Below, piece after piece: positions 6,153 through 31,853 of a stretch of DNA of 64,000 nt. A program made the position numbers and the translations under genes. Numbering within the stretch: the first letter of the stretch is position 1; each line of letters starts with the position of its first letter. The DNA is from Candidatus Woesearchaeota archaeon (lineage in GTDB: Archaea > Nanobdellota > Nanobdellia > Woesearchaeales > DSVV01). The notes below the pieces were generated by a model that saw only the letters and a list, made by a program, of their open reading frames with translations, had not been told where the DNA came from and made no database searches. The stretch is taken from contig JAGVYH010000002.1 in assembly GCA_018303325.1 (NCBI GenBank), positions 17,246 through 81,245 of the forward strand, in the 5' to 3' direction.

Positions 6153-7523
6153 ATGAAAATTTTATTTGTTTATCCACCACCATTTGAAGATAAGATTTTT
6201 TCCAATTTAGTCTATCCTCCCCTAGGTATATTATTTCTTGCAAGCGTTGTTAGAGAAATGGGGCATGATGTAAAAGTATTTGATGCGAATGTGTTGCGTG
6301 CAAGTTTTGAAGAAACAGTTAATTATATAAAAGAAATTAAGCCAGACATAGTTGGAATAACAGCAGCAACTGCAAATGGACCAAGTACATTTAAGCTTGC
6401 AGCAAAGATAAAGGAAATCGAACCGTCTGTCAAAATTATTTCTGGTGGGCCACATATTACTGTCGCACCAGAAGAGTGCCTAAATGATGAAAATATTGAT
6501 TATATTCTTGTTGGTGAAGGTGAGGCAACAATTAAAGAGTTAATTGAAGCATTAGAATCAGGTAGTGACCCAAATAAAGTAAAAGGAATTGGTTTTAGAA
6601 AAGGAAAAAAAATAATTATAACACCAAAACGTGAATTAATTCATGATTTGGACTTATTGCCAATGCCGGCATATGATCTTATTCCTATCGACAAATATTG
6701 GTCACCACAAATTACTGAATTTCCGTTTACAAGCATGATAACAAGCAGAGGCTGCCCTTATCACTGCATATTTTGTGGTGTTCAAGCAATATTTGGCTAC
6801 CAATATCGTTTTATGAGTGCAGAAAAAATGTTTTTTCAGGTTCAGGAATTACAAAAAAAGTTTGATGTTAAGACAATCATATTTAAAGACAGCGAATTTG
6901 CTTTAAGAAAAGATAGAATAGAAAAATTTTGTGATTTAATCATTAAAAATAATGTTAAAGTAAAATGGCTTTGTAATGCACGCGTTAATAATATGACTAA
7001 TGAACTTCTAACAAAAATGAAAAATGCTGGATGTTATTCAATAACATATGGTGTTGAATCTGGTTCTGAAAGGATTCTTACTGTGCTTAAGAAAAATATT
7101 ACGTTGAACCAAGCACGAGAAACAATAAAACTCACAAAAGAAGTTGGTATTGAATGTGCAGCCAATTTTATATTAGGAAATCCGACAGAAACAAAAGAAG
7201 ATATCGAAAAAACAATAAACTTTGCGATTGAATTAAATCCAGATTATGCAATGTTTTCATATTTAGTTCCTTATCCTGGGACTGAGATTCATGAAATGGC
7301 AGCACATAATAGTTGGGTTATCAATGATTTAGATAATGTATATAAAAACAGCTCTGTGGTTATGAATGCTACGGCTTTAACAACAAAAGAGTTATCTAAA
7401 TATATGAAAAAAGCTTATTTTAAATTTTACTTTAGACCACGATTTATTTGGAAAACAATTAAAAACTTAAAATTCTCTGACTTAAAAACAAAACTGCCTG
7501 CTTTAATTGATATATTAAAGTAG
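6153..7523 (+). CDS. B12-binding domain radical SAM protein
   Basis: N-terminal cobalamin-binding Rossmann domain (PPLGILFLASV...DANV). CPYHCIFC radical SAM CxxxCxxC cluster. Confidence 0.85.
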   Translation: MKILFVYPPPFEDKIFSNLVYPPLGILFLASVVREMGHDVKVFDANVLRASFEETVNYIKEIKPDIVGITAATANGPSTFKLAAKIKEIEPSVKIISGGPHITVAPEECLNDENIDYILVGEGEATIKELIEALESGSDPNKVKGIGFRKGKKIIITPKRELIHDLDLLPMPAYDLIPIDKYWSPQITEFPFTSMITSRGCPYHCIFCGVQAIFGYQYRFMSAEKMFFQVQELQKKFDVKTIIFKDSEFALRKDRIEKFCDLIIKNNVKVKWLCNARVNNMTNELLTKMKNAGCYSITYGVESGSERILTVLKKNITLNQARETIKLTKEVGIECAANFILGNPTETKEDIEKTINFAIELNPDYAMFSYLVPYPGTEIHEMAAHNSWVINDLDNVYKNSSVVMNATALTTKELSKYMKKAYFKFYFRPRFIWKTIKNLKFSDLKTKLPALIDILK

Positions 7524-7646
7524 TTTATTTTCTCTTTAAATTTTATTATTTGAAATAAAGATTATTTTTTTATTTATAAAATATTACTCAAAAGCAATAA
7601 AACTTCATTAACTTTTTAAATTAATAATTATTCCTTAACAATAGTT

Positions 7647-9299
7647 ATGACTAAAAATAACATATCTAATCCCTACCTTAATTTTGTAATGAACAATATA
7701 GTTCCTAGAATCTTAACAAAGCTTGATAGAGATTACACTTCTCAAACATACGGCTGTTTTGACAGAAAATACTGGCATTACCGCATTAATGATTTTCCTT
7801 CACTTATAGAACAACAGCCTATGCTTGCTCTGGCGCAGTTATATACATGGAAAGATAAATCAAATATTTATTATAAAAATGAAAAAATAAGAGAATATAT
7901 TCTTGCTGCATTAAATTTTTGGAAAAATAAGCTGCATTCTGATGGAAGCGGAGATGAATATTGGCCAAATGAACATAGTTACCCACCAACAGTATTCCCT
8001 TTATTTGCTGCTTGTGAAAGTTATAAATTATTAAATCTCAACGATGATTCTTTAAAAAGAGCTATGCTTAAATCTGTAAACTTTATCTCGAAATGGAAAG
8101 AGAAGGGTGCTGTTAATCAAGAAATTGCATCTATTGCCGCTTTATACAGCGCTTATACAATCCTTAAGAAAAAAAGCATTTTGATTATAATTGATAATAA
8201 ATTAAAGAAAATAATTCCTCTTCAAACAAAAGAAGGCTGGTTTCCTGAGTATGGTGGTGCAGATTTAGGTTATTTAAGCGTAGCATTAGATTATGCAGCA
8301 AACTATTATCATTTAAGTAAAGATTCAAGAATTCTGCCACTTATTGAAAATATGATTGGATTTATAAAATATTTTGTTCATCCTGATGGAACATTTGGCG
8401 GCGATTATGGCAGCAGGAATACAGAATATTTTCTTTTGCATGGTTTAGAATTATTATCACAAAAGTATCCCCTTGCAAGAAGAATAGCTGACAAACTCTT
8501 AGAAAATATTAATACTGCTTATTATTTGCATAATGGAATTGATGACAGATATCTATGTGATTATTGCGGAAGATCTTTTGTTGGAGCAATGATTTCTTAT
8601 TCTCCTCAATCAGTAAATATAAAGTTGCCTTATGAACTGGAATTTGAGAAATGGTTTGCTTATTCAAAAATTTACATTAAAAGTACAAAATCAGTTTATA
8701 TTATTGTTAATCTCTTAAAAGGCGGAATAGTAAAGGTTTATAGTAAACAGAGCAACAAACACATAGAAAATAAAGAAGGTTTGCTCTTTAGTGATTGTGG
8801 ATATAATATTATTAATAGCAAAAATATTTTGACGACAAATTGGTTGGAATATGAATATAATATATTGATTAATAAGAATAATTTATTCGTCGACGGAGTT
8901 TTTCACAAACAATCTTTGTTTGTACTTACACCATTAACAAGTATCTTGTTAAGGTTTGCTGCCAAATTATTGGGTAAATTATTAATACCATTTGCAAAAA
9001 GAATAATGATCTCTTCTCAATCCATTTCATTAGTTACATTCAAAAGGAGTATATCATTATCAGATGAAAGCTTAATTATTCATGATTTCATTAGCTCACC
9101 ATTTATAATAAAAAAGTTATGTTCAATAAACCGCTTTTCTTTAAGATATGTTCCCTCTTCGCGCTTTTTTCAAATTAATGACTTGTTTATAATTAATAAA
9201 GAGCGAAAATATTTTAATATTAAAAAATTAGAATTAAAAAAAAGATTTGATTTTTTTAAGAAAGAAGAGAAAATACTAAATGTAAAAATAATTAATTAA
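7647..9299 (+). CDS. hypothetical protein (550 aa) in glycan locus
   Basis: Long ORF with ATG start and coding-like composition. No motif I can name with confidence. Confidence 0.5.
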   Translation: MTKNNISNPYLNFVMNNIVPRILTKLDRDYTSQTYGCFDRKYWHYRINDFPSLIEQQPMLALAQLYTWKDKSNIYYKNEKIREYILAALNFWKNKLHSDGSGDEYWPNEHSYPPTVFPLFAACESYKLLNLNDDSLKRAMLKSVNFISKWKEKGAVNQEIASIAALYSAYTILKKKSILIIIDNKLKKIIPLQTKEGWFPEYGGADLGYLSVALDYAANYYHLSKDSRILPLIENMIGFIKYFVHPDGTFGGDYGSRNTEYFLLHGLELLSQKYPLARRIADKLLENINTAYYLHNGIDDRYLCDYCGRSFVGAMISYSPQSVNIKLPYELEFEKWFAYSKIYIKSTKSVYIIVNLLKGGIVKVYSKQSNKHIENKEGLLFSDCGYNIINSKNILTTNWLEYEYNILINKNNLFVDGVFHKQSLFVLTPLTSILLRFAAKLLGKLLIPFAKRIMISSQSISLVTFKRSISLSDESLIIHDFISSPFIIKKLCSINRFSLRYVPSSRFFQINDLFIINKERKYFNIKKLELKKRFDFFKKEEKILNVKIIN

Positions 9300-9354
9300 T
9301 TAATTTAGGTTATAAGAACAAGAGGGTTAAAAATTAGTTATTTTTTATTAAATT

Positions 9355-10701
9355 TCATTTTGAATACATTTTCTCTTTCCATCCTCTTGCCACATTAGAA
9401 ATAGTATCATGATAAACATCTTCTTTTTTTGAAATATAATGAAGTAATCTTTCATAAACTCTCAAATATCTTTCATTTCCTGTGAGATAATCATCTGGAT
9501 GGGTAAGTATATTAATAATTCCACCAACATTATAAATATAATTTACTTTTTCTTTCCAAAGTTTAAGCATTTTGTTTGGGTTTAAATTTAAAGTATAGAT
9601 TAACCTGTAATCCTGCGGCAAAGTTAGTGGCACTTCAACCATATTATTAATCATAAAAGGAAACACCGTGCAACAACCGCTTCTTTTAGCTAATGGTGAA
9701 AGAATATCTGTGTCTGGAACAGAAGAATCACATTCAAAATAATTGCTTAGCTCTTTTAAAAAAGACTCATTTCTCATTAAAATAGGTGACCTGAAAGAGG
9801 TTGGCTTAAATCTTGCAAATGTAGTTTTTGCATGATTTAATCTTTTAGCAACACCTTTTTTATTCAAAAAAGACAATTTTCCGTCGTGATTATACCCATG
9901 TATACCAATCTCACAGCCATCTTTTACAAGTATATTTAGTTTCTTAAAGTTTAGATTATACTTATTTGAAAGAACATTCCAAGATGAATTGAAATTATAC
10001 CTTTTTTCAATTTCTCTGATAACAGAAATATTTCTGAATGATGTTTCAGTTTCCATGTCATGTGTAGCAATAAAACAGCATTTATTATTGTTTGGCCAAT
10101 GGTTAGATTTTCTGCCAGTCTTAATTTCAAGAGCCTTTTCCAACAAATACCTTAACACATCAACGCTAGGTTCAACCGGCCATGTCGGAAACCTAAACTT
10201 GTTTTTTAATGCTTTATTTGAATTAGTATTTATACTTGTGTTTATATCATTATCAATATCAATTTTCTTTTTTAAATTTGTTTTACGAATCATATTTCTA
10301 AAAAAAGGCGGGATTAAATTATATGAAAAAGGCAGTCGTGTAAATAATGCCCTTTTATGCAAAAAATATCTTTCAAAAAGAAGGTAATTAATTATATTTT
10401 CAAAATTATTAAGCTCAATATTTTTGCTGGTATTACTGAGGTTGAGAAAATCAAACTCCTTACCACCTACAATGATAGAAACATCTGGATTATTTGTGTT
10501 TTTATTGCAGATATTTTGGATTGGAAACATAATTAGTTGTTTACACCAATGTGGCAAAAGTTTTTTATTATTAATTTTAAGAGTTGCAATCTGTTTTTTA
10601 ATATGTGAATCAGTTGAGGAAGTTGATAGCGACTGCATCAACAGATGCTTTTTATATCTAATTGGAATATTTAAACTATTCAGCATGGTTTCTTCTGACA
10701 T
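9355..10701 (-). CDS. polysaccharide deacetylase family (CE4) protein, ArnD-like deformylase/deacetylase with N-terminal extension
   Basis: ATHDMETE and EIGIHGYNHD motifs resemble ArnD DVDTFRG and EVGLHAWDHH. Confidence 0.55.
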   Translation of the reverse strand: MSEETMLNSLNIPIRYKKHLLMQSLSTSSTDSHIKKQIATLKINNKKLLPHWCKQLIMFPIQNICNKNTNNPDVSIIVGGKEFDFLNLSNTSKNIELNNFENIINYLLFERYFLHKRALFTRLPFSYNLIPPFFRNMIRKTNLKKKIDIDNDINTSINTNSNKALKNKFRFPTWPVEPSVDVLRYLLEKALEIKTGRKSNHWPNNNKCCFIATHDMETETSFRNISVIREIEKRYNFNSSWNVLSNKYNLNFKKLNILVKDGCEIGIHGYNHDGKLSFLNKKGVAKRLNHAKTTFARFKPTSFRSPILMRNESFLKELSNYFECDSSVPDTDILSPLAKRSGCCTVFPFMINNMVEVPLTLPQDYRLIYTLNLNPNKMLKLWKEKVNYIYNVGGIINILTHPDDYLTGNERYLRVYERLLHYISKKEDVYHDTISNVARGWKEKMYSK

Positions 10702-10936: not shown

Positions 10937-11929
10937 ATGTATAAAGGACTTAAAGTCGCATTGGTTATTCCTGCATATAATGAAGAGAAATTAATAAAGC
11001 CAACCTTAGAAACTGTTCCTAAAACAATTGACAAAATATTTGTTATTGATGACTGCAGCACAGATCATATGCCTTCTGTTGTAAAAGAATGTATGAAAAA
11101 TGATAAAAGAATAGTTGGCATAAGGCATAAAAAAAATAAGGGTGTTGGACAAGCAATTATCACTGGTTATAAAGAAGCTGTGATGCTTGGATATGATGTT
11201 GCTGTTGTGATTGGTGGGGACAATCAAATGGATTTAAATGACCTACCTAATTTTTTAGAGCCAATTGCCAGCAAGGAAGCTGATTATGTCAAAGGCAACA
11301 GGTTTATGTTTGATTATTCACAAAAATACAATAACACAGTTGAAGGTAGCGCTTTTAAGGTAATGCCAAGTCAACGTTTCTTTGGCAACTCAATTCTCTC
11401 ATTCATTGTCAAATGGGCATCTGGCTATTGGAAGATTTTTGATACACAAGATGGTTACACTGCAATTACAAGACAAGCAATTGAAAAAATTGATTGGAGA
11501 AAGGCGTGGAAAGGTTATGGTTATGTTGGAGATTGGCTGGCATTATTTAATGTTTATAATTTACGAGTTAAAGATGTTCCTAGACGAGCCATTTATCTGA
11601 AAGGAGAAAGGCAGTCACAAATAAAGATAGGAAGATATATTCTAAAAGTATTGCCTAGAATGATACGATGCTTTTTTTCGAGAATGAAACATAAGTATAT
11701 ATTTCAGGATTTCCATCCTTTAGTTTTATTTTATTTTTTAGGATTTAGTTTATTACCATTGGGTATTTTATTAGGAATTTACATATTTATTAAATGGATG
11801 ATTTATTTCCCAATTGATATTTCAGGAACAAAAGCAGTATTAGTAGCATTATTCATCATTACAGGCATACAAAGCCTTTTCTTTGCTATTTGGTTTGATA
11901 TGCAAGCAAATGAATATTTGCAGAAATAG
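10937..11929 (+). CDS. GT2 family polyprenyl-phosphate glycosyltransferase (ArnC/DPM1-like)
   Basis: VALVIPAYNEE...VIDDCSTD GT-A motifs and DxD region. Two C-terminal TM helices. Confidence 0.85.
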   Translation: MYKGLKVALVIPAYNEEKLIKPTLETVPKTIDKIFVIDDCSTDHMPSVVKECMKNDKRIVGIRHKKNKGVGQAIITGYKEAVMLGYDVAVVIGGDNQMDLNDLPNFLEPIASKEADYVKGNRFMFDYSQKYNNTVEGSAFKVMPSQRFFGNSILSFIVKWASGYWKIFDTQDGYTAITRQAIEKIDWRKAWKGYGYVGDWLALFNVYNLRVKDVPRRAIYLKGERQSQIKIGRYILKVLPRMIRCFFSRMKHKYIFQDFHPLVLFYFLGFSLLPLGILLGIYIFIKWMIYFPIDISGTKAVLVALFIITGIQSLFFAIWFDMQANEYLQK

Positions 11930-12006: not shown

Positions 12007-13446
12007 TTGAGACTGAATAAACACAAAATGAAGATAATTTTTATTAATCCACCATTTACTAATTATGTTGGCGGCATAAAAGGGTATGGAGGAAAATCTA
12101 TGCCCTTAAACCTAACTTATTTAGCATCGTATTTAATAAGCAAAGGTTATGAAAATACTTCAATTCTAGATGCCGAAGCATTAGAATTAAGTTATGAACA
12201 AGTATTAGAACATATAAAGAAAGAAGACCCAGACATTATTGGTTTCACATCACCTACCCCTTCTTTTCAGCAGGTTGTTGATTTATCTAACTTGATAAAA
12301 CAACAAAACCCTCACGTGAAAATAATCATCGGTGGACCACATTCATCTGCTCTGCCACTAGACACAGCAAAAGAACCATCTTTAGATTTTGTTTGTTTTG
12401 GAGAAGGAGAATTAACAATGTTAGAGCTTGTTGAATTCATAGAAAAAGGCAGAACAGATTATGATAAAATTGATGGATTAATATATAAAGAAGGGGAAAA
12501 AATTATTCAAAACAAGCAAAGAAAATTAACAGAGAATTTAGATATTTTTCCTTTCCCTGTAAGAAATTTAGTGCCTAGACATCTTTATTATCCACCGCCA
12601 ACAAAAAGTGTAAGTGACAAAAAAGGAACTTCTATGGTAACTTCCAGAGGTTGTCCATTCAATTGTACATATTGTGTTGCAAAAGTAGTATGGACAAGAA
12701 GAGTGAGATATAGAAGTGTTAAAAATGTCGTCGATGAAATGGAAGAATGTGTTAACAAGTATAACCTTGGGGAATTTAATATTCATGACGAGCTGTTTAC
12801 AGCAAATGAAAAGAGAGTTATAGAATTATGCAAAGAGATAATTAATAGAAAACTTGATGTTGGATGGGTATGTATGGCAAGAGTAGATACAATTCATTCA
12901 AAAGAAATGCTGGAATATATGAAAAAAGCTGGATGCGGTAAAATTGTTTTTGGTTTTGAGTCTGGCTCACAAAAAATTTTAGATCTCATGAAAAAAGGTA
13001 CAACTGTTGAACAAGCAATACGTGCTGTAAAACTTGTTAAAGAATCTGGAATCAAAACATCTGGAAATTTCATGTTAGGGAACATTGGTGAAACGCTAGA
13101 AACAATGAGAGAAACAATTGATATGGCTAAAAAACTAAATACAGATACTATTGCTTTTTTTCAGACAAGCCCGTATCCTGGCACAGAGATTTATTATACT
13201 GCACTTGAAAAAGGGTATTTAAGAAAAGATATACAATGGAAGGATTTTGCACTATTATCTAAGACTGCCCCAGCTTTAAATCTTCCAAACTTACCGCCAG
13301 AAGAAGTAGCAAAATGGGTAAAAAAAGGATATAAAGAATTTTATTTAAGGCCCAGTTATATATTAAATCAGATAGCATGTATAAAAAATTGGCGTGATGC
13401 CAAAAGAATGTGGCAGGGAATAAAACTTCTTGTTCAGGTTAGTTAA
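12007..13446 (+). CDS. B12-binding domain radical SAM protein
   Basis: B12-binding N-domain. TSRGCPFNCTYC radical SAM cluster. Confidence 0.85.
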   Translation: MRLNKHKMKIIFINPPFTNYVGGIKGYGGKSMPLNLTYLASYLISKGYENTSILDAEALELSYEQVLEHIKKEDPDIIGFTSPTPSFQQVVDLSNLIKQQNPHVKIIIGGPHSSALPLDTAKEPSLDFVCFGEGELTMLELVEFIEKGRTDYDKIDGLIYKEGEKIIQNKQRKLTENLDIFPFPVRNLVPRHLYYPPPTKSVSDKKGTSMVTSRGCPFNCTYCVAKVVWTRRVRYRSVKNVVDEMEECVNKYNLGEFNIHDELFTANEKRVIELCKEIINRKLDVGWVCMARVDTIHSKEMLEYMKKAGCGKIVFGFESGSQKILDLMKKGTTVEQAIRAVKLVKESGIKTSGNFMLGNIGETLETMRETIDMAKKLNTDTIAFFQTSPYPGTEIYYTALEKGYLRKDIQWKDFALLSKTAPALNLPNLPPEEVAKWVKKGYKEFYLRPSYILNQIACIKNWRDAKRMWQGIKLLVQVS

Positions 13447-13460: not shown

Positions 13461-14240
13461 TCAACTCTCTTGCTTTTCATATTTCTTGCAAATAAGCATA
13501 CCTCTAAAAAATAATAATTTAGGTATCTTTATGTTTTCAATCTGCTTTAAAAGATTAAACAAAAAAGAAGGTAAGAATTTCTTTACGGATGATGAACACT
13601 CAATAAAACTCATTATTTCAATTTGGGAAGTTAGGCTTAATTTTTTGCAGAAAGCAATAAGTTTAAATGGAAAAGAACCATATGAATTTATACTTATTAT
13701 TATATTAAGCATCCTTCTTAATATTACAAATGGATGAAATCCATTATAAAACTCGATGTATGCAACACCATCTGGCTTTAAGACTCGACTAATTTCTCTT
13801 AATGCATTTTTTTGATTTTCAAAATGGTAAAATGAGTTGAAACAAAAAATCACATCAAAACAATTATCTGGATATGGCAATCTTTCTGCTGATGCTATCT
13901 TAAATTTAACATATTTGTTTTCCTTTTTTGCATGAGTTATCATCAAAGAAGAAAGGTCGCATGCATGCAATTCTTTAGCTATAAGATTCATATGCTTTAA
14001 ATATAACCCTGGACCACAACCCAAATCCAAGACATTTAAGTTTTTTTTGTCTTTTTCTCTGTCTATATATTCATGCCTCTGAGTAGTAATAATCCTCTCA
14101 AATTTGTCAGAATCTCCAAATCGCTCGCCGTAATAAGGTATTATTTTACTATAATGTTTATTAAGCTTTTTCATAGAATTAACTTCGCGATTGTTTAAGA
14201 GATCATCCATTGTAATATACCTTAATCTTCTCAACAACAT
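13461..14240 (-). CDS. class I SAM-dependent methyltransferase
   Basis: VLDLGCGPGLY motif I and LKPDGVAYIEF. Alternative start at MDDLL (about 14210) would remove the overlap with the upstream gene. Confidence 0.75.
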   Translation of the reverse strand: MLLRRLRYITMDDLLNNREVNSMKKLNKHYSKIIPYYGERFGDSDKFERIITTQRHEYIDREKDKKNLNVLDLGCGPGLYLKHMNLIAKELHACDLSSLMITHAKKENKYVKFKIASAERLPYPDNCFDVIFCFNSFYHFENQKNALREISRVLKPDGVAYIEFYNGFHPFVILRRMLNIIISINSYGSFPFKLIAFCKKLSLTSQIEIMSFIECSSSVKKFLPSFLFNLLKQIENIKIPKLLFFRGMLICKKYEKQES

Positions 14241-22830: not shown

Positions 22831-22831
22831 C

Positions 22832-23392
22832 ATGAAATTAACAATTAGAAAGAAAATCTCTCCTATAAGAGATGGCTTAACAAAAAAAACAATTGAAAAA
22901 AAAAGCAGATTAATTTTAATTAATCTTATTAAGATGAGTATATTTAAAAATTCAAAAAATATAAGTTGTTATGTATCACAAGATTCTGAAGTAGATACCC
23001 ATCGGTTGATTAAACTAATAATACAAAGTAAAAGAAAAGTAATTGTACCTTTTGTTGACAAGGAGATGAATTGTGCGGAATTATTTGATTTTAATAAATT
23101 AATGAGAGGTAAATTTGGGATATTAGAACCAAAAGAAAAAAAGAGATTTAACAAAGACATGTTGGACTTAATAATTATTCCTGGTGTTGTTTTTGACAGG
23201 AAAGGTAATCGGATTGGAAGAGGCAAAGGATATTATGATAAATTTTAAAAAAAAGTTAAATCAAAAAAAATTGCTCTTGCTTATGATTTACAAGTGTTTG
23301 AAAATATCCCATTTGAACATCATGATATAAAAATGGATTATATAATAACAGAATCAAAGATAATAAATTGTGAAGAGATTAGGGCAAAATGA
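22832..23392 (+). CDS. 5-formyltetrahydrofolate cyclo-ligase (MTHFS family), interrupted by an in-frame TAA at 23246-23248
   Basis: GRGKGYYD motif occurs before the stop. The conserved C-terminal ...IALAYDLQVF...HDIKMDYIITE continues in the same frame after the stop and ends in an ATGA overlap with folD. Confidence 0.6.
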
Positions 23393-24261
23393 CAGCTAAA
23401 ATTATTGACGGAAAAAAAATAGCAGAAGGTATTAAGGAAAAGTTAAAATTTCAGATTGAAGGATTAACTATTAAACCATGCCTTGCTGTTATTTTAGTAG
23501 GCAATAATCCCGCTTCAAATGTTTATGTTAATATGAAGGAAATTGAATGCACAAAATTAGGTATAATATTAAAAAAATATTGTCTAAAAGAGAATTTATT
23601 GGAAGAGAAATTGTTAAATTTAATCAAAGCTCTTAATAACGATGTTCATGTTCATGGCATATTGGTTCAGTTGCCTTTACCATCACATATTGATGAATTT
23701 AACATTATTGAAGCCATTGAACCAAAAAAAGATGTAGATGGATTTCATGCAATTAATATGGGTTGTTTGTTTATTGGAACTCCTAAATTTGAGCCTTGTA
23801 CACCTAAAGCAATAATAGAAATGATTAACTCAACAAATATAACAATTGAGGGAAAACATGCAGTAATTGTTGGAAGAAGCAAGATTGTTGGTAATCCAGT
23901 AGCACAGCTACTCCTACAACATAATACGACAGTAACAATTTGTCACTCCAAAACACACGATCTTAAAGAATATACAAAGCAAGCAGACATTTTGGTTGTA
24001 GCTGTGGGTATACCACATCTCATAAAAGAGGATATGATTAAAGAAGGCGCAATTGTAATTGATGTAGGTGTTAATAGAATAGAGGATATTACATATAAAA
24101 AAGGATATTATTTATGCGGAGATGTTGATTTTGAGAAAGTTATAAATAAGGCATCATACATCTCTCCTGTACCTGGTGGCGTTGGTCCAGTAACAATAGC
24201 GATGTTAATGTCAAATACCTTAAAAGCGTATCATCTAATTGAAAATGGAAAAGCGATTTAA
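23389..24261 (+). CDS. folD: bifunctional methylene-THF dehydrogenase / methenyl-THF cyclohydrolase
   Basis: Full-length FolD with HGILVQLPLP and GRSKIVG motifs. Confidence 0.9.
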   Translation: MTAKIIDGKKIAEGIKEKLKFQIEGLTIKPCLAVILVGNNPASNVYVNMKEIECTKLGIILKKYCLKENLLEEKLLNLIKALNNDVHVHGILVQLPLPSHIDEFNIIEAIEPKKDVDGFHAINMGCLFIGTPKFEPCTPKAIIEMINSTNITIEGKHAVIVGRSKIVGNPVAQLLLQHNTTVTICHSKTHDLKEYTKQADILVVAVGIPHLIKEDMIKEGAIVIDVGVNRIEDITYKKGYYLCGDVDFEKVINKASYISPVPGGVGPVTIAMLMSNTLKAYHLIENGKAI

Positions 24262-24652
24262 AGAGTGGAAAAAGCCTGAAATTAAAGATGGAGAATTGAC
24301 TAAATGGAATTGGGTTGTGCAACATATTAATGGGCTTAAACTTGGAGAATATACAGATATAGGCGCATTTACTTATATCAATGCAAAGTATGGTGTTGAA
24401 ATTCAAGATGATGTTCAAATTGGAAGCCATTGCTCAATATACAGCCACAGCACAATTGATAATAAACAAGGTAAGATAACTCTTAAAAAAAATTGCAGAA
24501 TTGGTTCACATTGTGTTATAATGCCAGGAGTAACTATTGGAGAAAATTCAGTTATAGGTGCGTTTAGTTTTGTAAATAAAAATATTCCTGATAATGTAAT
24601 TGCTTATGGTGTTCCTGTTAAGATTAAAGAAAACAGCAACAATAATAAGTAA
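24239..24652 (+). CDS. hexapeptide-repeat acetyltransferase (LegH/PseH-position N-acetyltransferase)
   Basis: Left-handed beta-helix hexapeptide repeats. Confidence 0.8.
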   Translation: MKMEKRFKEWKKPEIKDGELTKWNWVVQHINGLKLGEYTDIGAFTYINAKYGVEIQDDVQIGSHCSIYSHSTIDNKQGKITLKKNCRIGSHCVIMPGVTIGENSVIGAFSFVNKNIPDNVIAYGVPVKIKENSNNNK

Positions 24653-24703
24653 TAAGTCAACCTTGAAATGAAGCTCGTTTTAGCTGCGGTTTAGGTAAAA
24701 TCA

Positions 24704-24798
24704 AAGTTTTGTTTATACTAAAAGCACAAAATAATCGAACATTATTTTGTGCTTTTGTATATACAAAAGCAATTAATTTGTTCGAAAATTAATTGCTT
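24704..24798. repeat. Family A double-hairpin intergenic repeat, copy A1
   Basis: Two adjacent roughly 18-bp-stem hairpins: TACTAAAAGCACAAAATAAT...ATTATTTTGTGCTTTTGTATA and TACAAAAGCAATTAATTT...AAATTAATTGCTTTTAGTATA. Confidence 0.7.
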
Positions 24799-24893
24799 TT
24801 AGTATATAAACAAAAGTTGCGGACTTATTACATACAACAATAAGAGATAGTATTTGTAGATTTATAATACAATTATCGTTAGAGGATATTAAA

Positions 24894-26018
24894 ATGGAGA
24901 TTATACCATTAGCAAAACCATATATAGGAAACGAAGAGATTGAAGCAGTTTGTGAGGTTTTAAAATCCGGATGCTTAAGCCTAGGTCCAAAGTTAGAAGA
25001 ATTTGAAGAAAGATTTGCAAAATTTGTGGGTGTTAGATATGCTATTGCAGTCAGCTCTGGCACAACAGGGTTGCACTTGTGTATGGCAAATTTAAACTTA
25101 AAACAAGGGGATGAAGTAATTACAACACCATTATCGTTTGTTGCATCTGCAAATTGCATTTTGTATATGAATGCTAAACCAGTCTTTGTTGATATTGATC
25201 CATTGACATTGAACATTGATCCAAAAAAGATAGAAAATGCAATTACATCCAAAACAAAAGCAATTTTGATTGTTCATATATTTGGAATGCCATGTGATAT
25301 GGATCCAATTATAGAAATTGCAAAGAAGTACAATCTCCTAATTATAGAAGATGCTTGTGAAGCATTGGGAGCAGAATACAAAGGCAAGAAGGTTGGTACT
25401 TTTGGTTTGGCATCAGTGTTTGCATTCTATCCAAACAAACAAATTACAACTGGTGAAGGTGGGATGATATGTACAAATAGTCAAGAAATTTATACTCTTT
25501 GTAAAAGTTTAAGGAATCAAGGAAGACCTGTTGACTCAAGTTGGTTAGTTCATGAAAGAGTTGGATTTAATTATAGATTAAACGAAATAAGCTGTAGTTT
25601 AGGAATTGAACAGTTAAAAAAAGTTGAGTTAATTCTTAAAAAAAGAGAAATTGTTGCAGAAACGTATAACCAATTACTTGATGGAACAGATGGAGTCGTT
25701 ATTCCATATAAATCAGATATTGCAAAACGAAGTTGGTTTATTTACTTTATCATTCTTTCAGAATATTTAAAAAGAGATGAACTATCCCAGAAATTAGATA
25801 AAAAAGGGATTAAAACAAAACCATACTTACCTTGTATACATCTACAACCAGCATATGTTAGATTATTTGGGTATAAAAAAGGAGATTTTCCAGTATGTGA
25901 AAAAATTAGTGAACATACACTAGCATTACCTTTTTTTACAGATATGAATAAAGAGACTATTGAGAAAGTTTGTAGTGAACTAAAGAGAGAGATTAAAGAT
26001 GTTTTTTCAACTAACTAA
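24894..26018 (+). CDS. DegT family aminotransferase (LegC/PseC-like UDP-4-keto-6-deoxy sugar aminotransferase)
   Basis: PLP aminotransferase fold and position next to the 4,6-dehydratase. Confidence 0.9.
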   Translation: MEIIPLAKPYIGNEEIEAVCEVLKSGCLSLGPKLEEFEERFAKFVGVRYAIAVSSGTTGLHLCMANLNLKQGDEVITTPLSFVASANCILYMNAKPVFVDIDPLTLNIDPKKIENAITSKTKAILIVHIFGMPCDMDPIIEIAKKYNLLIIEDACEALGAEYKGKKVGTFGLASVFAFYPNKQITTGEGGMICTNSQEIYTLCKSLRNQGRPVDSSWLVHERVGFNYRLNEISCSLGIEQLKKVELILKKREIVAETYNQLLDGTDGVVIPYKSDIAKRSWFIYFIILSEYLKRDELSQKLDKKGIKTKPYLPCIHLQPAYVRLFGYKKGDFPVCEKISEHTLALPFFTDMNKETIEKVCSELKREIKDVFSTN

Positions 26019-27042
26019 AAGATCAACATTCGGTGGTAAGATTATTCTTGTTACTGGTGGCTTAGGTTCTATTGGCTCAGAAATTGTAAGGCAATTGCTG
26101 AAATATAACCCTAAACAGGTACGAATATTTGACAATAGAGAAACTGAAACTTTTTTTATGCAACATGAGCTTAAACAGCACTCAAATCTTCGCTTTTTAG
26201 TCGGTGATGTAAGAGATAAAGATAGGCTTAATATGGCAATGGAACATGTAAACATTGTTTTTCATGCTGCTGCTTTAAAACATGTTCCGCTTTGCGAATA
26301 CAATCCATTCGAAGCTGTTAAAACTAATGTTTATGGTACCCAAAATATAATTGATACTGCTTTAACAAACAATGTAGAGAAAGTAGTAAATATTAGTACA
26401 GACAAAGTAACTAATACTATAAATACCATGGGTGCTACTAAGTTACTGGCTGAAAGGCTTATTTCGTCAGCTCAATATTTTAAAGGCAATAAAAAAACAA
26501 TTTTTTCATCAGTCAGATTTGGAAATGTGATAGATTCTAGAGGATCAATTATTGACCTTTTTAAAAAACAAATTAAACATGGTGGACCGGTTACAATTAC
26601 AAATCCAGATATGACTAGATTTGTTATGTCAACTAAACAGGCAGTTAATCTTGTTTTGAAAACTGCTGAAGAAATGCATGGGGGAGAAATTTTTATTTTG
26701 AAGATGCCGATATTTAAATTAAATGATTTAGTGGAAGTGGTTATAGAAGAGTTATCTTATAAAGAGGGATATGACTCAAAGAACATAAAAATAAAAAATA
26801 TAGGTATTAGAGAAGGTGAAAAATTATATGAAGACCTTATGACAGAGGTTGAAGCACAGAATTCATTAGAAACACAGACTAAATTTATTGTCCTATCAAA
26901 ATTAGGACTGCCAAATTATAAAGGACACCAGAAAAATTATAAAGCAATTAAAACAATAAAAGAACGATATTCTTCAAGGGATATCAAACCATTATCAAAA
27001 GAATTGTTAAAGAGGATACTTGTAAATGAAAAGATAATTTAA
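25999..27042 (+). CDS. UDP-GlcNAc 4,6-dehydratase, polysaccharide biosynthesis CapD/PseB/LegB family
   Basis: KIILVTGGLGSIGSEI Rossmann motif and SDR-extended fold. Confidence 0.85.
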   Translation: MFFQLTKRSTFGGKIILVTGGLGSIGSEIVRQLLKYNPKQVRIFDNRETETFFMQHELKQHSNLRFLVGDVRDKDRLNMAMEHVNIVFHAAALKHVPLCEYNPFEAVKTNVYGTQNIIDTALTNNVEKVVNISTDKVTNTINTMGATKLLAERLISSAQYFKGNKKTIFSSVRFGNVIDSRGSIIDLFKKQIKHGGPVTITNPDMTRFVMSTKQAVNLVLKTAEEMHGGEIFILKMPIFKLNDLVEVVIEELSYKEGYDSKNIKIKNIGIREGEKLYEDLMTEVEAQNSLETQTKFIVLSKLGLPNYKGHQKNYKAIKTIKERYSSRDIKPLSKELLKRILVNEKII

Positions 27043-27059: not shown

Positions 27060-28694
27060 CTACGTTTTTATTGTTTTATTGTAGTATTTGTGTTTTAGCA
27101 TGTCTAAAGCCAAATCTGAAATTCTTTCATTAACTTTACCGTCAATCTTATACACTTGATCTTTGACAAATAAATTTCTTTTTTCTTTTAACTTTTTTTG
27201 TAAATTAATGTTATTATTAACATCTTCTAATATGGTCATTAAATTATCGATATTATCTATTAATAGAACAGCACCAGAATCAACATAGGGTTTAAATGGT
27301 AAAAAATTGTTTATTTCCTTAGGTATCAAACCCATAACTGTTTTATTTAAGATGAGAGCTTCAAGAATAACTGTGCAATTAGAGAAAGCAACTACGTAAT
27401 CTGACAATGTTATTGCGTCATAAATATTAAACTCTTTTTTTATAAAGACATTATCTACACCCCTTATCATTTTAACGTATTCACTTATGTAACTGTCGCG
27501 TGGGTGTGGTTTAATGAAAAGTGCAAATTCTTTTTTATCTTTGAAGCTGTTCACTATCCTACTTAATATAGATAATGCAACCTCTTTTGTAAGATCTGCA
27601 ACAGTTGCATACAATACTATTTTTTTTCCAGATAATTTTAATAAGTATATATCTGGATCCCTATTTTCTATATTTTTATCTTCAATTTTTCTAAACAAAA
27701 AATCAGTATTTGGCTGTCCAACAATCTCAATGTTTTTTTCATCGTATCCGTCATAACCAATAAGTTTCTTCTTTGTAAATTCGCCATAAACTGCAATTTT
27801 GTCAGGCATTGGACAGCCTCTTAAAACATCTTCTTTTGAATGTACATAATATAATGTGTCATCTATCAGCCCTTCTTGTATCTCTAACACAGGCACATTT
27901 AAAGAGTGAGCAGCAGCAGTTATTGCCTTGCCTTGTAATGTTGATCCTGACATCTGTATTACTAATTTTGGTTTCATTAATTTTATAGCTTTTTTTGTTG
28001 TTTCTATATAGAATATTGCTTCACCAATCATTTTTTTTAAAACAAAATCAAGCCTGTCTTTTAATAAATGGTATGCATTTTCATTATTAATAATAAATGC
28101 AGAAGTAAAGTCTATACTTTTCATCATCCTATTGTATAAACTAAGAAATTTTTTTCTTTGCTGTTGAATTATTTTAGTTGTTTCATAATCATAAAAAAGT
28201 TCAATAGGATTTACAAAAGTATACCTTTTTCTTTGTTCTCTTGTCTTTAACCCAAAAGAAGCAAGATCATCATAATACAAAACATTTATTTCTGTTTGCT
28301 TGTTTAAATCATCAATTATACTGCCTATTCTTACGTTCCTTCCACTTTGAAGAAAAGAAGGGTGTGTAGTAACCAGTATATTACATGGATAAATATTATT
28401 TCTGCCAATGGTTCTTTTTCTCAGACGAGTCTTTAAATCAAAAGAATAGTTCATCAGAAGTGTACCCAACCTATGCTTTATTTCTTCTGTTTTTTTAATT
28501 TTTTCATTTCTTTTGTAAAAAATATCAGAGACGGATGGAAAATATTTGCTATCTCGATCCAACCATGGCTCAACAAGCCACCATAAAGAGATATTATCAT
28601 ACTTAAATAGCTCAGCAATATCTTTATGGTAATATACTTTTTTTTTTGAAAATTGTTTAACCCAAATTATTACTTTGTCCATTTTTAACAACAT
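27060..28694 (-). CDS. GT-B-like glycosyl/glycerophospho-transferase (TagB/TagF or capsule-biosynthesis-like), putative nonulosonic-acid transferase
   Basis: C-terminal KIVLYATV...KPHPRD resembles CDP-glycerol glycerophosphotransferases. Function is uncertain. Confidence 0.45.
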   Translation of the reverse strand: MLLKMDKVIIWVKQFSKKKVYYHKDIAELFKYDNISLWWLVEPWLDRDSKYFPSVSDIFYKRNEKIKKTEEIKHRLGTLLMNYSFDLKTRLRKRTIGRNNIYPCNILVTTHPSFLQSGRNVRIGSIIDDLNKQTEINVLYYDDLASFGLKTREQRKRYTFVNPIELFYDYETTKIIQQQRKKFLSLYNRMMKSIDFTSAFIINNENAYHLLKDRLDFVLKKMIGEAIFYIETTKKAIKLMKPKLVIQMSGSTLQGKAITAAAHSLNVPVLEIQEGLIDDTLYYVHSKEDVLRGCPMPDKIAVYGEFTKKKLIGYDGYDEKNIEIVGQPNTDFLFRKIEDKNIENRDPDIYLLKLSGKKIVLYATVADLTKEVALSILSRIVNSFKDKKEFALFIKPHPRDSYISEYVKMIRGVDNVFIKKEFNIYDAITLSDYVVAFSNCTVILEALILNKTVMGLIPKEINNFLPFKPYVDSGAVLLIDNIDNLMTILEDVNNNINLQKKLKEKRNLFVKDQVYKIDGKVNERISDLALDMLKHKYYNKTIKT

Positions 28695-30183
28695 CTATTC
28701 GTTTACAAATATCCTTTATTTCAGTTATAGTGACAACCTTAAGCACAAAAAGAGAAAGTATATAAAATATCAGTGCAACAATAATTGCAATTAATGCATT
28801 TAGTTCATTTAAGCCAAACAATAATATTGTTAAGTTTACAACTATTAAAAATACCGCCCCTGCAATAATGGTCTTAAGCCAGATTATAAATGGTATATTT
28901 AACTGAATTTTTGATTTAATATTTTTAAATGATGCAATAAACATGAACAAATAGCAGATTAATGTTGCTAAAGCAGCACCGATTATATTAAAAAAAGGAA
29001 TAAGTATCGCATTAAGCACAATATTAAGAAGTGCAGCAATAAAACTAGTTTTTGTGTTTAGTTCTGGCTTTCCAATACCTGCAAGCACAGCATAGTTTAT
29101 TTGAGCAACTGAAAGAATAAATATGCCTATTGATAATATTTTTAAAGTATTATTTGCTCCTATATATTCTTGCCCAAACAGAGTTTTAATGATTATTTCT
29201 GAAAAAAAGATCAAAATAATAAGAATAGGTATAAAAATAATGAATGAATATTTATATATCAAAACAATTCCCTGGCTTAAGTGTTCCATGTGTTTTTTTG
29301 ACCAAAGCTCTGAGCTCAAAGGATAGATTACATTTCTAAAACCAATTGTAATATAAGCTAAAAAATTAGCAGTTGGTAATGCAATATTATATAATCCTAC
29401 ATAAAAAACACCTGAAAAAAGCGTAAGCATTATTATGTCTGTGTAGGTTATAATAACACCAAAACCAACACCTAAAAAAGTGGGTATGGCAAATCTAAAT
29501 AGCCTTTTTAATAGTGGTTTATTATAATTTATTTTTATTAAGAAGAAATTAGGAAATACTTTTTTAAAGAAAATAAAAGAATAAATTGTTATTGTCAGAA
29601 CAGGCGCAAGTATGTAAGCATAACTTATACCAATCAATCCTAAGCCAAGCTTAAGAAATACATATGTAAGTGCAAATATAAATACTGACTTGAAAAGACC
29701 AATTGTTGAAAAAAGAATCATTTCTTGGTAGCCTTGGAATGTTTGTTTTAATAATAACTCTCCACCATAAAGAATAAAAGAAATCGCAACTAAAATAATT
29801 AAAGGCATTGATGCTACATCATGAATATAATTTTTTGCTAAAAATCCAGAGAATATAATGAATAGAATAAATATAATTATTGACATTATAAATCCGATAA
29901 TAGTAACATAAACAAAAGACTCTTTGATGGATTTTTCGTCTTTATTTACTTTAAATTCCGGGATAAATTTTGTAAGACTTTCATAGAAGCTTATATCACG
30001 AAAACTGTATATTAATGCAACAAGTGAAAATACAGAGAAAAAAAGTCCATACTCTTCTACTGTAAGGCTCCTTGCAAGAAATATTCTGTAAATATAACTT
30101 ACAAGTGCTGCTGATAAAGTAAATATTGTTATTATAATAAAATTTTTTATTGCTTTTTTAGTGTAATTTTGTGTTTCCATCAC
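28657..30183 (-). CDS. Wzx-like oligosaccharide flippase (MOP superfamily polysaccharide biosynthesis protein)
   Basis: About 14 TM helices and N-terminal RIFLARSLTVEEYG motif. Confidence 0.75.
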   Translation of the reverse strand: MMETQNYTKKAIKNFIIITIFTLSAALVSYIYRIFLARSLTVEEYGLFFSVFSLVALIYSFRDISFYESLTKFIPEFKVNKDEKSIKESFVYVTIIGFIMSIIIFILFIIFSGFLAKNYIHDVASMPLIILVAISFILYGGELLLKQTFQGYQEMILFSTIGLFKSVFIFALTYVFLKLGLGLIGISYAYILAPVLTITIYSFIFFKKVFPNFFLIKINYNKPLLKRLFRFAIPTFLGVGFGVIITYTDIIMLTLFSGVFYVGLYNIALPTANFLAYITIGFRNVIYPLSSELWSKKHMEHLSQGIVLIYKYSFIIFIPILIILIFFSEIIIKTLFGQEYIGANNTLKILSIGIFILSVAQINYAVLAGIGKPELNTKTSFIAALLNIVLNAILIPFFNIIGAALATLICYLFMFIASFKNIKSKIQLNIPFIIWLKTIIAGAVFLIVVNLTILLFGLNELNALIAIIVALIFYILSLFVLKVVTITEIKDICKRIDVVKNGQSNNLG

Positions 30184-30368
30184 TTAACGCCGTACCACTA
30201 TGTTTTAAATGTTTTATGGAATGAAAATATAGTGAACCTACTTATAGTGCAACAACTTAATCTTTAGGTGATGGTTATATGTAAACCACCAGAATTATTA
30301 AGTTGGTTGACCATATTAATTAGGCGTATACAAGTTAGTTGACTATATTACCTTGGTGGTTTGTGATA

Positions 30369-31853
30369 CTAAGAACTGGTTATTATTTTTGGATTATTTT
30401 TAATTATTTGAACTGCTTTTTTCATTGTTTTTTTAAGACCGTGTTTTTTTGTAGCATAATAAACCATTTTGAATTTTGTTTTGATATCTTCCATCATTCT
30501 TCTCGGATGCAACAATCTATATTTATTTATATCATTTCTTATATCATTTTCAAGCCGCCTTAATTTTTTGATAAATTCCTCATTATTAAAATCAGTACAA
30601 TTAAGGTATAAATCATTAACACCTTCTAACCCCATTAAATAATTTAATTCATCGCTTATTAATCCTTGCTCTTTTGCCCATTCATAAAGCTTTGTTCCTG
30701 GTAAAGGAGTAGTTACAGCAAATCCTGACGTTGGTTCAACATGAAGGCTTTTACAAAATTCTCTTGTTTCTTTTATTGAGTTTTCATCCTCACCAGGGTA
30801 TCCAAACATCATTTGCACTATTGGCTTCATTCCTGCATTTAATGTCTCTTGTATAGCATATTTATTTAATTCAACTGTGCTCTTTTTGTTCATATTATCT
30901 AATATTCTTTGGCTTCCTGATTCAATCCCATATCCTACATAAACACAACCCGCCTCTTTCATTTTCTTTAACAAAGAAGGAGTTATACAATTAACTCTGC
31001 CTTGGCACATCCAAGATATATTTAATGGTTTAATTTTGCCACATAACTCTAACATTCGGCTTTCACTAATCATTACCAATTCTTCTGCAAATTGTATCTG
31101 TGTGACATTGTACTTTTTTCTTAGTATACTAATTTCTTCGATTATCTTGTCTATTGATCTTAATCTTACACCATTAAAAGTTTTTGAGCAGAAATAACAA
31201 TTCCATGGACAGCCTCTTGCAGTTATTACATTCATACTGTTTGGATATTCTGGCTCAAAGAAAAAAGGGGTCTTTAAATATGATTCGATTGAAAATAAAT
31301 TCCATGCAGGCAATTCAATTGAATCTATGTCCTTGAGTTGAGTTTCATTAGTGGTTCGGATATATATCCCATTCTTCATAAAAGTAATGCCCTTTACGGT
31401 TTTTAGTTGTTCAAAATAGTTATCAGCATTACTCTTTTCTATTGTTTTAAGAATATTAGGCAGGATGATTTCTCCCTCCCCCATAACACAAATATCTACT
31501 TTTGTATTTTTTAACACAATTTCGCTGCTATGCATGGCCAATGCACCACCCAGAATAATCAAAGGGGAATTTGCTTTTGATTTAATATGCGTACTAATCC
31601 ACTTTACATATTTAAATTCTGGAGACATAGCAGAAATTCCAACACAATCAAAATTCTTTTTTTGTATAATTGATAAAACTTCTTCGTCAGTATACATCAT
31701 AACATCTATATCCAGTATATCTACTTGATAACCATCTTTAATAAGATGGGATGCGATATATGCTAATCCCAAAGGCAACCAAGCTGCATATCTTCGTTTA
31801 CCATTATATATCTGCGGTAGATGTATTAATAATATTTTTTTCATTTGAAACAC
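30369..31853 (-). CDS. B12-binding domain radical SAM protein
   Basis: B12-binding N-domain and ARGCPWNCYFC cluster. Confidence 0.85.
   Translation of the reverse strand: MFQMKKILLIHLPQIYNGKRRYAAWLPLGLAYIASHLIKDGYQVDILDIDVMMYTDEEVLSIIQKKNFDCVGISAMSPEFKYVKWISTHIKSKANSPLIILGGALAMHSSEIVLKNTKVDICVMGEGEIILPNILKTIEKSNADNYFEQLKTVKGITFMKNGIYIRTTNETQLKDIDSIELPAWNLFSIESYLKTPFFFEPEYPNSMNVITARGCPWNCYFCSKTFNGVRLRSIDKIIEEISILRKKYNVTQIQFAEELVMISESRMLELCGKIKPLNISWMCQGRVNCITPSLLKKMKEAGCVYVGYGIESGSQRILDNMNKKSTVELNKYAIQETLNAGMKPIVQMMFGYPGEDENSIKETREFCKSLHVEPTSGFAVTTPLPGTKLYEWAKEQGLISDELNYLMGLEGVNDLYLNCTDFNNEEFIKKLRRLENDIRNDINKYRLLHPRRMMEDIKTKFKMVYYATKKHGLKKTMKKAVQIIKNNPKIITSS

Follow-up and report, generated by a model that had tools for sequence, protein, structure and literature searches.

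Three radical SAM genes lie within a surface-glycan island

We analyzed a 64-kb stretch of DNA (~30% GC) from a Candidatus Woesearchaeota archaeon (contig JAGVYH010000002.1 of assembly GCA_018303325.1, a 99,902-bp scaffold of a metagenome-assembled genome from the Rifle aquifer), referred to here as the window; all coordinates follow its numbering. The window encodes three proteins that combine a B12-binding domain with a radical S-adenosylmethionine (SAM) domain (B12-rSAM proteins), which we label rSAM1, rSAM2 and rSAM3. Genes for surface glycans, identified with Pfam and NCBIfam models, fill the window almost gene by gene from its start to ~37.5 kb (an island at ~558–37525), and further glycan genes are found upstream, such that the island spans at least 47 kb and lies mostly inside the window. 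All three rSAM genes are in this island, and there are none in the other 27 kb of the window. The same clustering of rSAM and glycan genes is seen again in many genomes, indicating that it is not due to chance. The most useful new point from our analysis concerns rSAM3, which falls in a clade linked to operons for nonulosonic acids, an association that had previously gone unremarked.

A first-pass annotation of the window had assigned B12-rSAM open reading frames (ORFs) to 6153–7523, 12007–13446 and 30369–31853, each with an N-terminal cobalamin domain and a CxxxCxxC motif. Pfam searches and alignments confirmed these assignments, with two of the start positions shifted. The product of rSAM1 (6153–7523, + strand; deposited as MBS3121381.1) matched the B12-binding model with E = 4.6e-26 (residues 20–130) and the Radical_SAM model with E = 6.2e-25 (residues 195–358). 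The rSAM2 ORF opens with a TTG at 12007, and the deposited protein, an exact match of 472 residues (MBS3121385.1), starts at the ATG at 12028 (12028–13446, + strand); E-values for the two domains were 1.2e-23 and 1.3e-26, respectively. For rSAM3 (30369–31853, − strand), the E-values were 5.2e-18 and 1.9e-20, and the length of the deposited protein, 491 residues, places its start at 31844. The B12-binding model (PF02310) was matched over its full length in all three proteins, with scores of 65–91 bits (cut-off 32.1), and all three matched PF04055 with E = 1.9e-20 to 1.3e-26. The CxxxCxxC motif is SRGCPYHCIFC in rSAM1 (C201/C205/C208), SRGCPFNCTYC in rSAM2 (C216/C220/C223, numbered from the TTG start) and ARGCPWNCYFC in rSAM3 (C215/C219/C222), and its cysteines are invariant across the homologue alignments. 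Domain content and motif support the assignment of all three to the class-B-type radical SAM proteins. Pairwise identity among the three is 29–35%, indicating that they are not recent paralogues, and the distance among them is about the same as their distance from the hopanoid enzyme HpnJ and from BchE, the anaerobic Mg-protoporphyrin IX monomethyl ester oxidative cyclase.

Genes around rSAM1 and rSAM2

The island begins with a class I SAM methyltransferase (558–1361, +; Methyltransf_11, E = 2.6e-22), followed on the opposite strand by an LPG_synthase_TM-family membrane protein (1671–2600, −; PF03706, E = 5.8e-41), an FrhB/FdhB-like protein with an N-terminal 2x[4Fe-4S] ferredoxin domain (2623–3885, −; FrhB_FdhB_C, E = 2.2e-35, plus Fer4 models) and a GT-C glycosyltransferase of the PMT_2/ArnT type (4037–5869, −; PMT_2, E = 1.5e-11), which is presumed to use a lipid-phosphate sugar donor. 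Genes for PMT_2 proteins again lie beside B12-rSAM genes in two other loci (L001, L007). The FrhB/FdhB-like gene, between those for the LPG_synthase_TM and PMT_2 proteins, has two matches in related loci and is hence rare; its product could be an electron donor to radical SAM enzymes or a sugar-modifying redox enzyme. Downstream of rSAM1 is a gene for a 550-residue protein with no Pfam or NCBIfam match (7647–9299, +), homologues of which occur near B12-rSAM genes in loci L063 and L076. Next come a possible polysaccharide deacetylase-like protein (9355–10701, −; a weak Polysacc_deac_1 match, E = 2.2e-4, under the gathering score) and, directly upstream of rSAM2, a family 2 glycosyltransferase (GT2) of the polyprenyl-phosphate sugar synthase type (10937–11929, +; Glycos_transf_2, E = 6.8e-23). 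The best NCBIfam matches of this GT2 are AglJ, PpgS, ArnC and Dol-P-hexose transferase, all under cut-off.

A second class I SAM methyltransferase lies beyond rSAM2 (13461–14240, −; Methyltransf_11, E = 1.7e-25), followed by a Pfam-identified amino-sugar module on the same strand (14203–17335, −) consisting of a DegT aminotransferase (14203–15333), a hexapeptide acyltransferase (15423–16046) and a GFO/IDH/MocA oxidoreductase (16343–17335). The first-pass annotation had counted four SAM methyltransferases, naming three class I enzymes plus a formyltransferase. Pfam confirmed the formyltransferase (20912–21685) and the class I methyltransferases at 558–1361, 13461–14240 and 33200–33730, which are the only three found among window ORFs of at least 100 residues. 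The same contig carries a fourth methyltransferase gene outside the window, ~3.7 kb upstream of its start (L091, 6294–7040), and a gene for a radical SAM protein of non-B12 type is also located just upstream.

A nonulosonic acid gene set precedes the rSAM3 operon

Flagella, S-layers, capsules and lipopolysaccharides can all be capped by nonulosonic acids, sugars that control how phages and the immune system recognize a cell. A run of + strand genes at 18554–27042 appears, from its family assignments, to be a complete set of the legionaminic/neuraminic type: cytidine monophosphate (CMP) sugar transferase and NeuB, NeuC, acetyltransferase, aminotransferase and 4,6-dehydratase. The first gene encodes a 575-residue fusion of a CMP-sugar cytidylyltransferase to a NeuB-type nonulosonic acid synthase (18554–20281; CTP_transf_3, NeuB and SAF domains); a related locus (L008) has instead a methyltransferase domain fused to NeuB. 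The fused protein scored 452.5 bits against NeuB_NnaB, over the cut-off of 399.65, and the NeuC-type hydrolyzing 2-epimerase (21646–22830) scored 458.7 bits against NeuC_NnaA, over the cut-off of 235.9. The hexapeptide N-acetyltransferase (24239–24652), the PseC/LegC-like aminotransferase (24894–26018) and the PseB/LegB-like 4,6-dehydratase (25999–27042) complete the set. Their Pfam families match, with NCBIfam scores under the equivalog cut-offs: PseB 316 of 408 bits, PseC 340 of 424 and LegC 303 of 420. The same holds for the CMP-transferase (PseF, 169 of 206). Interleaved with the nonulosonic acid genes at 20278–24261 are Pfam-identified genes for a PIG-L deacetylase (20278–20919), the formyltransferase, a 5-formyl-tetrahydrofolate cyclo-ligase (22832–23248) and FolD (23389–24261). 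This combination predicts a legionaminic-type sugar with an N-formyl group or a free amine, supplied by its own one-carbon genes. The same deacetylase and formyltransferase pair adjoins an rSAM3-like gene in an Elusimicrobia locus (L049).

A convergent operon on the − strand contains rSAM3. In order of transcription, it encodes a GDP-mannose 4,6-dehydratase (35034–36092; gmd, 409.9 bits, cut-off 415), a LegC-family aminotransferase (33845–34948; LegC, 394.3 bits, cut-off 420), a short, 176-residue class I methyltransferase-like protein (33200–33730; Methyltransf_11, E = 4.3e-7, with the match confined to the C-terminal half), a DegT-family protein that carries an insertion and is encoded directly before rSAM3 (31856–33139; DegT_DnrJ_EryC1, E = 2.6e-79, in two stretches), rSAM3 itself, a Wzx/MATE-type flippase (28657–30183; Polysacc_synt, E = 1.8e-20) and a putative nonulosonic acid transferase (27060–28694; a BFO_1060 family glycosyltransferase domain plus TIGR04396, both under cut-off). 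Homologues of the putative transferase are found in nonulosonic acid loci L007–L010 and L014. We considered whether the short methyltransferase is an orthologue of one found beside B12-rSAM pairs in Omnitrophota, and rejected this, since the similarity is at the domain level only. The last clear glycan gene of the island encodes a family 4 glycosyltransferase (36335–37525, +; Glycos_transf_1, E = 1.1e-23).

The rSAM3 clade is embedded in nonulosonic acid operons

To place the three proteins among their relatives, we compared 80 loci from GTDB species genomes, fetched with an rSAM3-family profile, and 80 metagenome loci, fetched with an rSAM1-family profile. Their ORFs were annotated with hidden Markov models iterated from the window proteins, and locus counts refer to loci of at least 8 kb. 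Homologues of rSAM3 with 40–64% identity lie inside clusters of NeuB, NeuC and CMP-transferase genes in four further genomes, including those of two Woesearchaeota and a Nanoarchaeote. In the GTDB set, NeuB was present within 10 kb in 17 of the 35 loci closest to rSAM3 versus 2 of 35 in the more distant half; in the metagenome set, one of 40 rSAM1-type loci contained it. We then compared individual genes, grouped by their clade in the tree described below. Of 45 rSAM3-clade members, 23 have NeuB within 10 kb, as do 9 of the 230 B12-rSAMs outside the clade (odds ratio 25.7; p = 2.7e-14 by Fisher's test, a value that is indicative only because the loci are not phylogenetically independent). Genes of the rSAM3 clade are co-directional with their neighbors in operons that run, for example, from a dehydratase through an aminotransferase, the rSAM and a CMP-transferase to NeuB; cultured carriers of such operons include Acetobacterium paludosum DSM 8237 and Desulfobacter curvatus DSM 3379. 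The association was replicated in IMG/VR, where the four contigs most similar to rSAM3 (L179–L182) all carry NeuB and a CMP-transferase. We conclude that the rSAM3 clade is embedded in nonulosonic acid operons of dozens of bacterial and archaeal species. More broadly, the family keeps its glycan-gene neighborhoods in different phyla and in both domains, a pattern seen in each of three independent collections. This conservation, and above all the position of rSAM3-clade genes in nonulosonic acid operons, strongly supports the role in sugar pathways that had been proposed from the window alone.

Three side observations concern this clade. IMG/VR contains 412 stretches that encode relatives; its contigs are classed as viral, but those found here may be either truly viral or misclassified cellular DNA. 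Near the rSAM3 homologue of a related Woesearchaeote (L007, 496–2898, −) is a gene for an 800-residue fusion of a radical SAM protein, with a degenerate B12-like N-terminus, to an aldo-keto reductase. Finally, we looked for one fixed partner gene of the clade and rejected this idea, since no family dominates among 70 immediate neighbors.

In a literature search covering open-access papers, no report connected nonulosonic acids with radical SAM enzymes, a negative that, given this coverage, does not prove novelty. Known nonulosonic acid tailoring enzymes are acyl-, amidino-, formyl- and O/N-methyl-transferases, and a radical SAM group in nonulosonic acid operons would bring a new type of chemistry to this class of sugars. 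Through the link of rSAM3 to such operons, some of the largest uncharacterized block of B12-rSAM sequences would also gain its first biological context.

Relatives of rSAM1 and rSAM2 occur in multi-gene cassettes

Close homologues of rSAM1, from Omnitrophota and unbinned metagenome contigs, occur in cassettes of two to four B12-rSAM genes, which also hold genes for class I methyltransferases, GT2, PMT_2 and DegT proteins, a dehydratase, a deacetylase and a flippase. Among the 230 B12-rSAMs outside the rSAM3 clade, 65 have a further B12-rSAM as their immediate same-strand neighbor, 46 have a GT2 and 37 have a class I methyltransferase. Two or more B12-rSAM genes were present in 16 of 35, 24 of 35 and 23 of 40 loci (46–69%); three copies in one locus are therefore not exceptional. 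The rSAM2 family is itself large, with 15,303 representatives at 50% identity (E ≤ 1e-30).

Several unusual relatives were also found. A metagenome-assembled bacterial contig (L076) carries eight B12-rSAM ORFs in 21 kb. Four giant proteins of 2,000–2,300 residues that were retrieved with rSAM2 (P0272, P0276, P0332 and P0344) each contain four B12-rSAM repeats. Much of plasmid 1 of the pig pathogen Lawsonia intracellularis (NC_008012.1, 27 kb; L094) is a glycan cassette of the kind seen around rSAM1 homologues, with genes for three GT2 proteins, GalE, a B12-rSAM, a second radical SAM protein, five class I methyltransferases and heptose-pathway enzymes.

The three proteins score below all curated family cut-offs

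We next scored the three proteins against curated families, and no NCBIfam curated cut-off was reached by any of them. The best curated profile for rSAM1 and rSAM2 was HpnJ (TIGR03471, cut-off 577.6 bits), with scores of 254.7 and 259.8 bits, respectively, and 153 for rSAM3. For rSAM3 the best curated profile was BchE (TIGR02026, cut-off 481 bits) at 170 bits; this profile was second best for rSAM1 (252) and rSAM2 (243). The AprD4-type profile (NF033070, cut-off 500 bits) gave 149.5, 98 and 79.5 bits, the MiaB/RimO families (cut-offs 251–357 bits) gave 27–46 bits, and TIGR04014 (MgmA/QCMT, the methyl-coenzyme M reductase glutamine C-methyltransferase; cut-off 360) gave 107–147 bits. Scores against the methylase profiles PhpK, HpnR, MJ0865, KedN5 and TsrM were 45–157 bits, all far under their cut-offs. 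In a neighbor-joining tree of 282 B12-rSAM sequences (424 columns, 100 bootstraps), the HpnJ pair and the BchE pair each formed a clade with 100% bootstrap support, and all three window proteins lay outside both. Membership of BchE or the tRNA-modification families, which would have spoken against a role in sugar pathways, was thus not seen: the profile scores were too low for both, and the tree set all three proteins apart from BchE.

Among solved structures, the best sequence match was AprD4 (6fd2) for rSAM1 (E = 2.2e-36) and rSAM3 (E = 5.3e-19), with the significant rSAM1 match covering essentially the radical SAM half (residues 163–416). MgmA/QCMT (PDB 9ccb) was the first or second sequence match for all three proteins. 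An AlphaFold2 model of rSAM3 (pLDDT 91.9) has the class-B fold, and its top Foldseek match was MgmA (E = 1.7e-22). TM-scores of MgmA, OxsB, AprD4, TsrM, CysS and TokK to the model were all 0.58–0.68, and we therefore rejected the fold as a guide to chemistry, as methylases, a ring-contracting enzyme and a dehydratase score alike. The residue under the corrin was rejected as a guide as well: W76 of TokK aligns with Ala74 of rSAM1, in a loop whose alignment is unreliable at such identity.

A model for sugar tailoring by the three enzymes

We consider it moderately probable that the three diverged class-B radical SAM enzymes tailor sugars within a surface-glycan island, most likely by C-methylation. 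For the chemistry taken by itself, C-methylation is the best prior, at about even confidence, because most characterized B12-rSAMs are C-methyltransferases, including the sugar-acting GenK, GenD1, MoeK5 and Fms7, and every sequence group with a characterized member includes C-methyltransferases (PMC12931638). According to the same account, non-methylating enzymes share the largest sequence group with methylases, and no features tell them apart. C-methylation, which the first-pass annotation had proposed, hence stands as most likely on priors, but sequence and fold do not separate it from ring contraction or dehydration. We know of no cobalamin-dependent radical SAM sugar epimerase that has been characterized.

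We infer the substrates from the neighboring genes. Each of the three enzymes would work beside a different set of pathway genes. rSAM3 would most likely modify the legionaminic-acid-type sugar made by genes 18554–27042, or its nucleotide-hexose precursor; the neighboring putative transferase would then transfer the product, and the neighboring flippase would export the glycan. The subfamilies of rSAM1 and rSAM2 are usually found beside GT2 enzymes of the polyprenyl-phosphate type, class I methyltransferases, other B12-rSAMs and GT-C transferases, and these two enzymes would most likely modify nucleotide-linked or dolichyl-phosphate-linked sugars. In each case, a [4Fe-4S] cluster at the CxxxCxxC motif would cleave SAM to yield a 5'-deoxyadenosyl radical, which would take a hydrogen from an unactivated carbon of the sugar or of an N-acyl group; the N-terminal domain would hold methylcobalamin, whose methyl group would then be delivered to give a C-methyl product.

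A requirement of the three enzymes for a cobamide is plausible, since their B12 domains are intact. No cobalamin-uptake genes are present among the genes of the 64-kb window, and a search of the window gave no Rfam match at gathering thresholds, and hence no cobalamin riboswitch, and no tRNA. Should the requirement be real, the cofactor has to come from scavenging, which would point to host-dependent DPANN archaea using scavenged cobamide for their cell surface.

A more specific proposal, which we regard as doubtful, is that the rSAM3 clade represents a missing enzyme class: a cobalamin-dependent C-methyltransferase that acts on the legionaminic/pseudaminic-type skeleton, on its N-acyl groups or on 6-deoxy-hexose precursors to give branched or C10 ulosonic acids. 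CMP-activated ulosonic acids with an extended C10 backbone have been detected by mass spectrometry in Magnetospirillum gryphiswaldense, with their biosynthetic route unexplained (PMC8157484; preprint 10.64898/2026.04.20.719630). If the proposal were true, the sialic-acid-like surface sugars of many anaerobes, candidate phyla radiation bacteria and DPANN archaea would depend on scavenged cobamides; if the enzymes are ordinary side-group methylases, the outcome is a useful annotation and no surprise.

Evidence against the model and alternative explanations

Several observations weigh against sugar C-methylation with cobalamin, or against the grouping on which the role of rSAM3 depends. The three proteins have no close characterized enzyme: curated cut-offs were missed by a factor of about two or more, and BLAST comparison with genuine HpnJ and BchE from plasmid records gave 24–32% identity, with a maximum of 32%. 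The best curated profiles (HpnJ and BchE) and the best solved-structure sequence match (AprD4) are all non-methylating, and in the structure search the highest TM-score for the rSAM3 model, 0.68, is also that of AprD4. Bootstrap support is only 38% at the boundary of the 46-member rSAM3 clade and 71% for an inner 11-member clade, and a Pfam survey of 70 immediate neighbors revealed no constant family that would pin the substrate of the clade. Cobalamin binding, too, is not readable from sequence, base-off binding having no defining motif. AprD4 and ArsL, which have related scaffolds, work without cobalamin (PMC12931638), and complete cobalamin synthesis is rare in Woesearchaeota (PMC8421398).

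Many of these points fit an alternative that we consider possible and clearly less probable than sugar tailoring with C-methylation as its likeliest form: that the enzymes act on the same sugar substrates with no methylation, by ring contraction to a carbocycle, by 1,2-diol dehydration leading to deoxygenation or by another radical rearrangement, with cobalamin serving as an electron sink or being absent. HpnJ and BchE head the curated profiles for each of the three proteins, the sequences of rSAM1 and rSAM3 match AprD4 best among solved structures, AprD4 also has the best TM-score to the rSAM3 model, and methylases and non-methylating enzymes belong to one large sequence group without distinguishing features (PMC12931638). 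In addition, the LPG_synthase_TM protein (1671–2600), the possible deacetylase (9355–10701), the GT2 (10937–11929) and rSAM1/rSAM2 together reproduce the family make-up of the hopanoid module of hpnI (GT2), hpnJ, hpnK (deacetylase) and LPG_synthase_TM. AprD4 and AprD3 are a dehydratase and reductase pair for sugar deoxygenation, and the radical SAM/aldo-keto reductase fusion beside the rSAM3 homologue in the related Woesearchaeote resembles this pair. However, neither the HpnJ clade nor the BchE clade includes any of the three proteins, all of which score far under both cut-offs, and we rejected an hpnIJK-like module by homology because the window GT2 (10937–11929) has no similarity to HpnI. 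Moreover, the B12 domains are full-length and score well over the Pfam threshold, the rSAM1 match to AprD4 is essentially limited to the radical SAM half, and methylation is the majority function of characterized members.

Two further explanations concern the number of genes and the nature of the substrate. The first-pass annotation had read the three paralogues as the mark of an unusually heavily C-methylated sugar set special to this locus. Three B12-rSAMs and three class I methyltransferases do lie in 37 kb of glycan genes, with another methyltransferase and a non-B12 radical SAM upstream, but we now consider this reading improbable: multi-copy clusters are usual for the family, as the locus counts above indicate (16/35, 24/35 and 23/40, with eight copies in L076), and the three enzymes belong to diverged subfamilies with different pathway-gene neighbors, so that each may add one modification to a different sugar. 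It is highly improbable that the enzymes act on lipids, peptides or cofactors, their place among glycan genes being incidental. The large sequence group to which they belong does include tetrapyrrole-, hopanoid-, lipid- and peptide-acting members, a lipid-related LPG_synthase_TM gene is nearby, and the closest plasmid-borne rSAM3 homologue, from Clostridium estertheticum, lies in a peptide-modification cluster with PqqD, a peptidase and an ABC transporter. The C. estertheticum protein, however, is only 30% identical to rSAM3, no peptide-precursor or lipid-synthesis genes were found in the island, and an incidental location would not account for glycan-gene neighborhoods conserved across phyla, domains and collections.

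Comparison with known systems

The closest characterized relatives resemble the window enzymes in part. HpnJ is proposed to turn bacteriohopanetetrol-glucosamine into a cyclitol ether, and OxsB carries out a ring contraction. Like rSAM1 and rSAM2, to which it is 30–32% identical, HpnJ has the two-domain architecture; it acts on a lipid-linked amino sugar, and its neighbors are of the GT2, deacetylase and LPG_synthase_TM families, which are also found around rSAM1 and rSAM2. By contrast, the window proteins score less than half of the 577.6 bits required for HpnJ and are excluded from the 100% HpnJ clade, HpnI and the window GT2 are unrelated at E ≤ 1e-3, and the host of the window is archaeal, with no hopanoid genes in view. 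BchE is 27–30% identical to the window proteins; it differs in its length of ~550 residues, with a C-terminal extension, and the window lacks a photosynthesis context.

Among enzymes that act on sugars, GenK, GenD1/GntE, MoeK5 and Fms7 are class-B proteins that methylate unactivated sugar carbons and are listed as characterized Csp3-methyltransferases (PMC12931638). They are the functional model that the first-pass annotation had invoked, and they serve actinomycete secondary metabolism, whereas the window enzymes are in cell-surface glycan pathways. AprD4, the apramycin 1,2-diol dehydratase, has an amino-sugar substrate and resembles rSAM3 in sequence and TM-score, but does not bind cobalamin. 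MgmA/QCMT is a genuine cobalamin-dependent radical C-methylase, with a protein as its substrate. For the nonulosonic acid genes, the nearest parallel is the legionaminic acid cluster of Ca. Kuenenia stuttgartiensis, which has the same deacetylase and formyltransferase pair as the window (20278–20919 and 20912–21685); there, the two genes go together with CMP-nonulosonic acids whose amine is free or formylated, and with +14 Da variants (preprint 10.64898/2026.04.20.719630). That account mentions no radical SAM gene, and the window adds FolD, the 5-formyl-tetrahydrofolate cyclo-ligase and, in the convergent operon, rSAM3.

The remainder of the contig

Beyond the glycan island, the window contains genes of bacterial type. 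A dense two-component block (41424–48329, +), unusual for a small-genome DPANN archaeon, encodes three response regulators and two histidine kinases, one of the PAS/HAMP type and the other a multi-GAF protein of 1,082 residues, and one more receiver protein is encoded at 53622–54170 (−). Since the RpoD-like sigma-70 factor described below, GyrA and the two-component systems suggested a bacterial contig, we considered this origin and rejected it because the window encodes PTH2 and class I lysyl-tRNA synthetase, a near-identical contig with the same gene order runs on into PCNA, and the contig was deposited as Woesearchaeota. The sigma-70 factor is a 523-residue protein (50353–51924, −) with regions 2, 3 and 4; its score was 372 bits for RpoD (PRK05658) and 306 bits for the sigma profile of the anti-phage protein MzaA. 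A bacterial-type sigma factor is unexpected in a DPANN archaeon. A further ORF (60492–62036, +) joins a Sigma70_r4 segment to a phosphoenolpyruvate-utilizer mobile domain.

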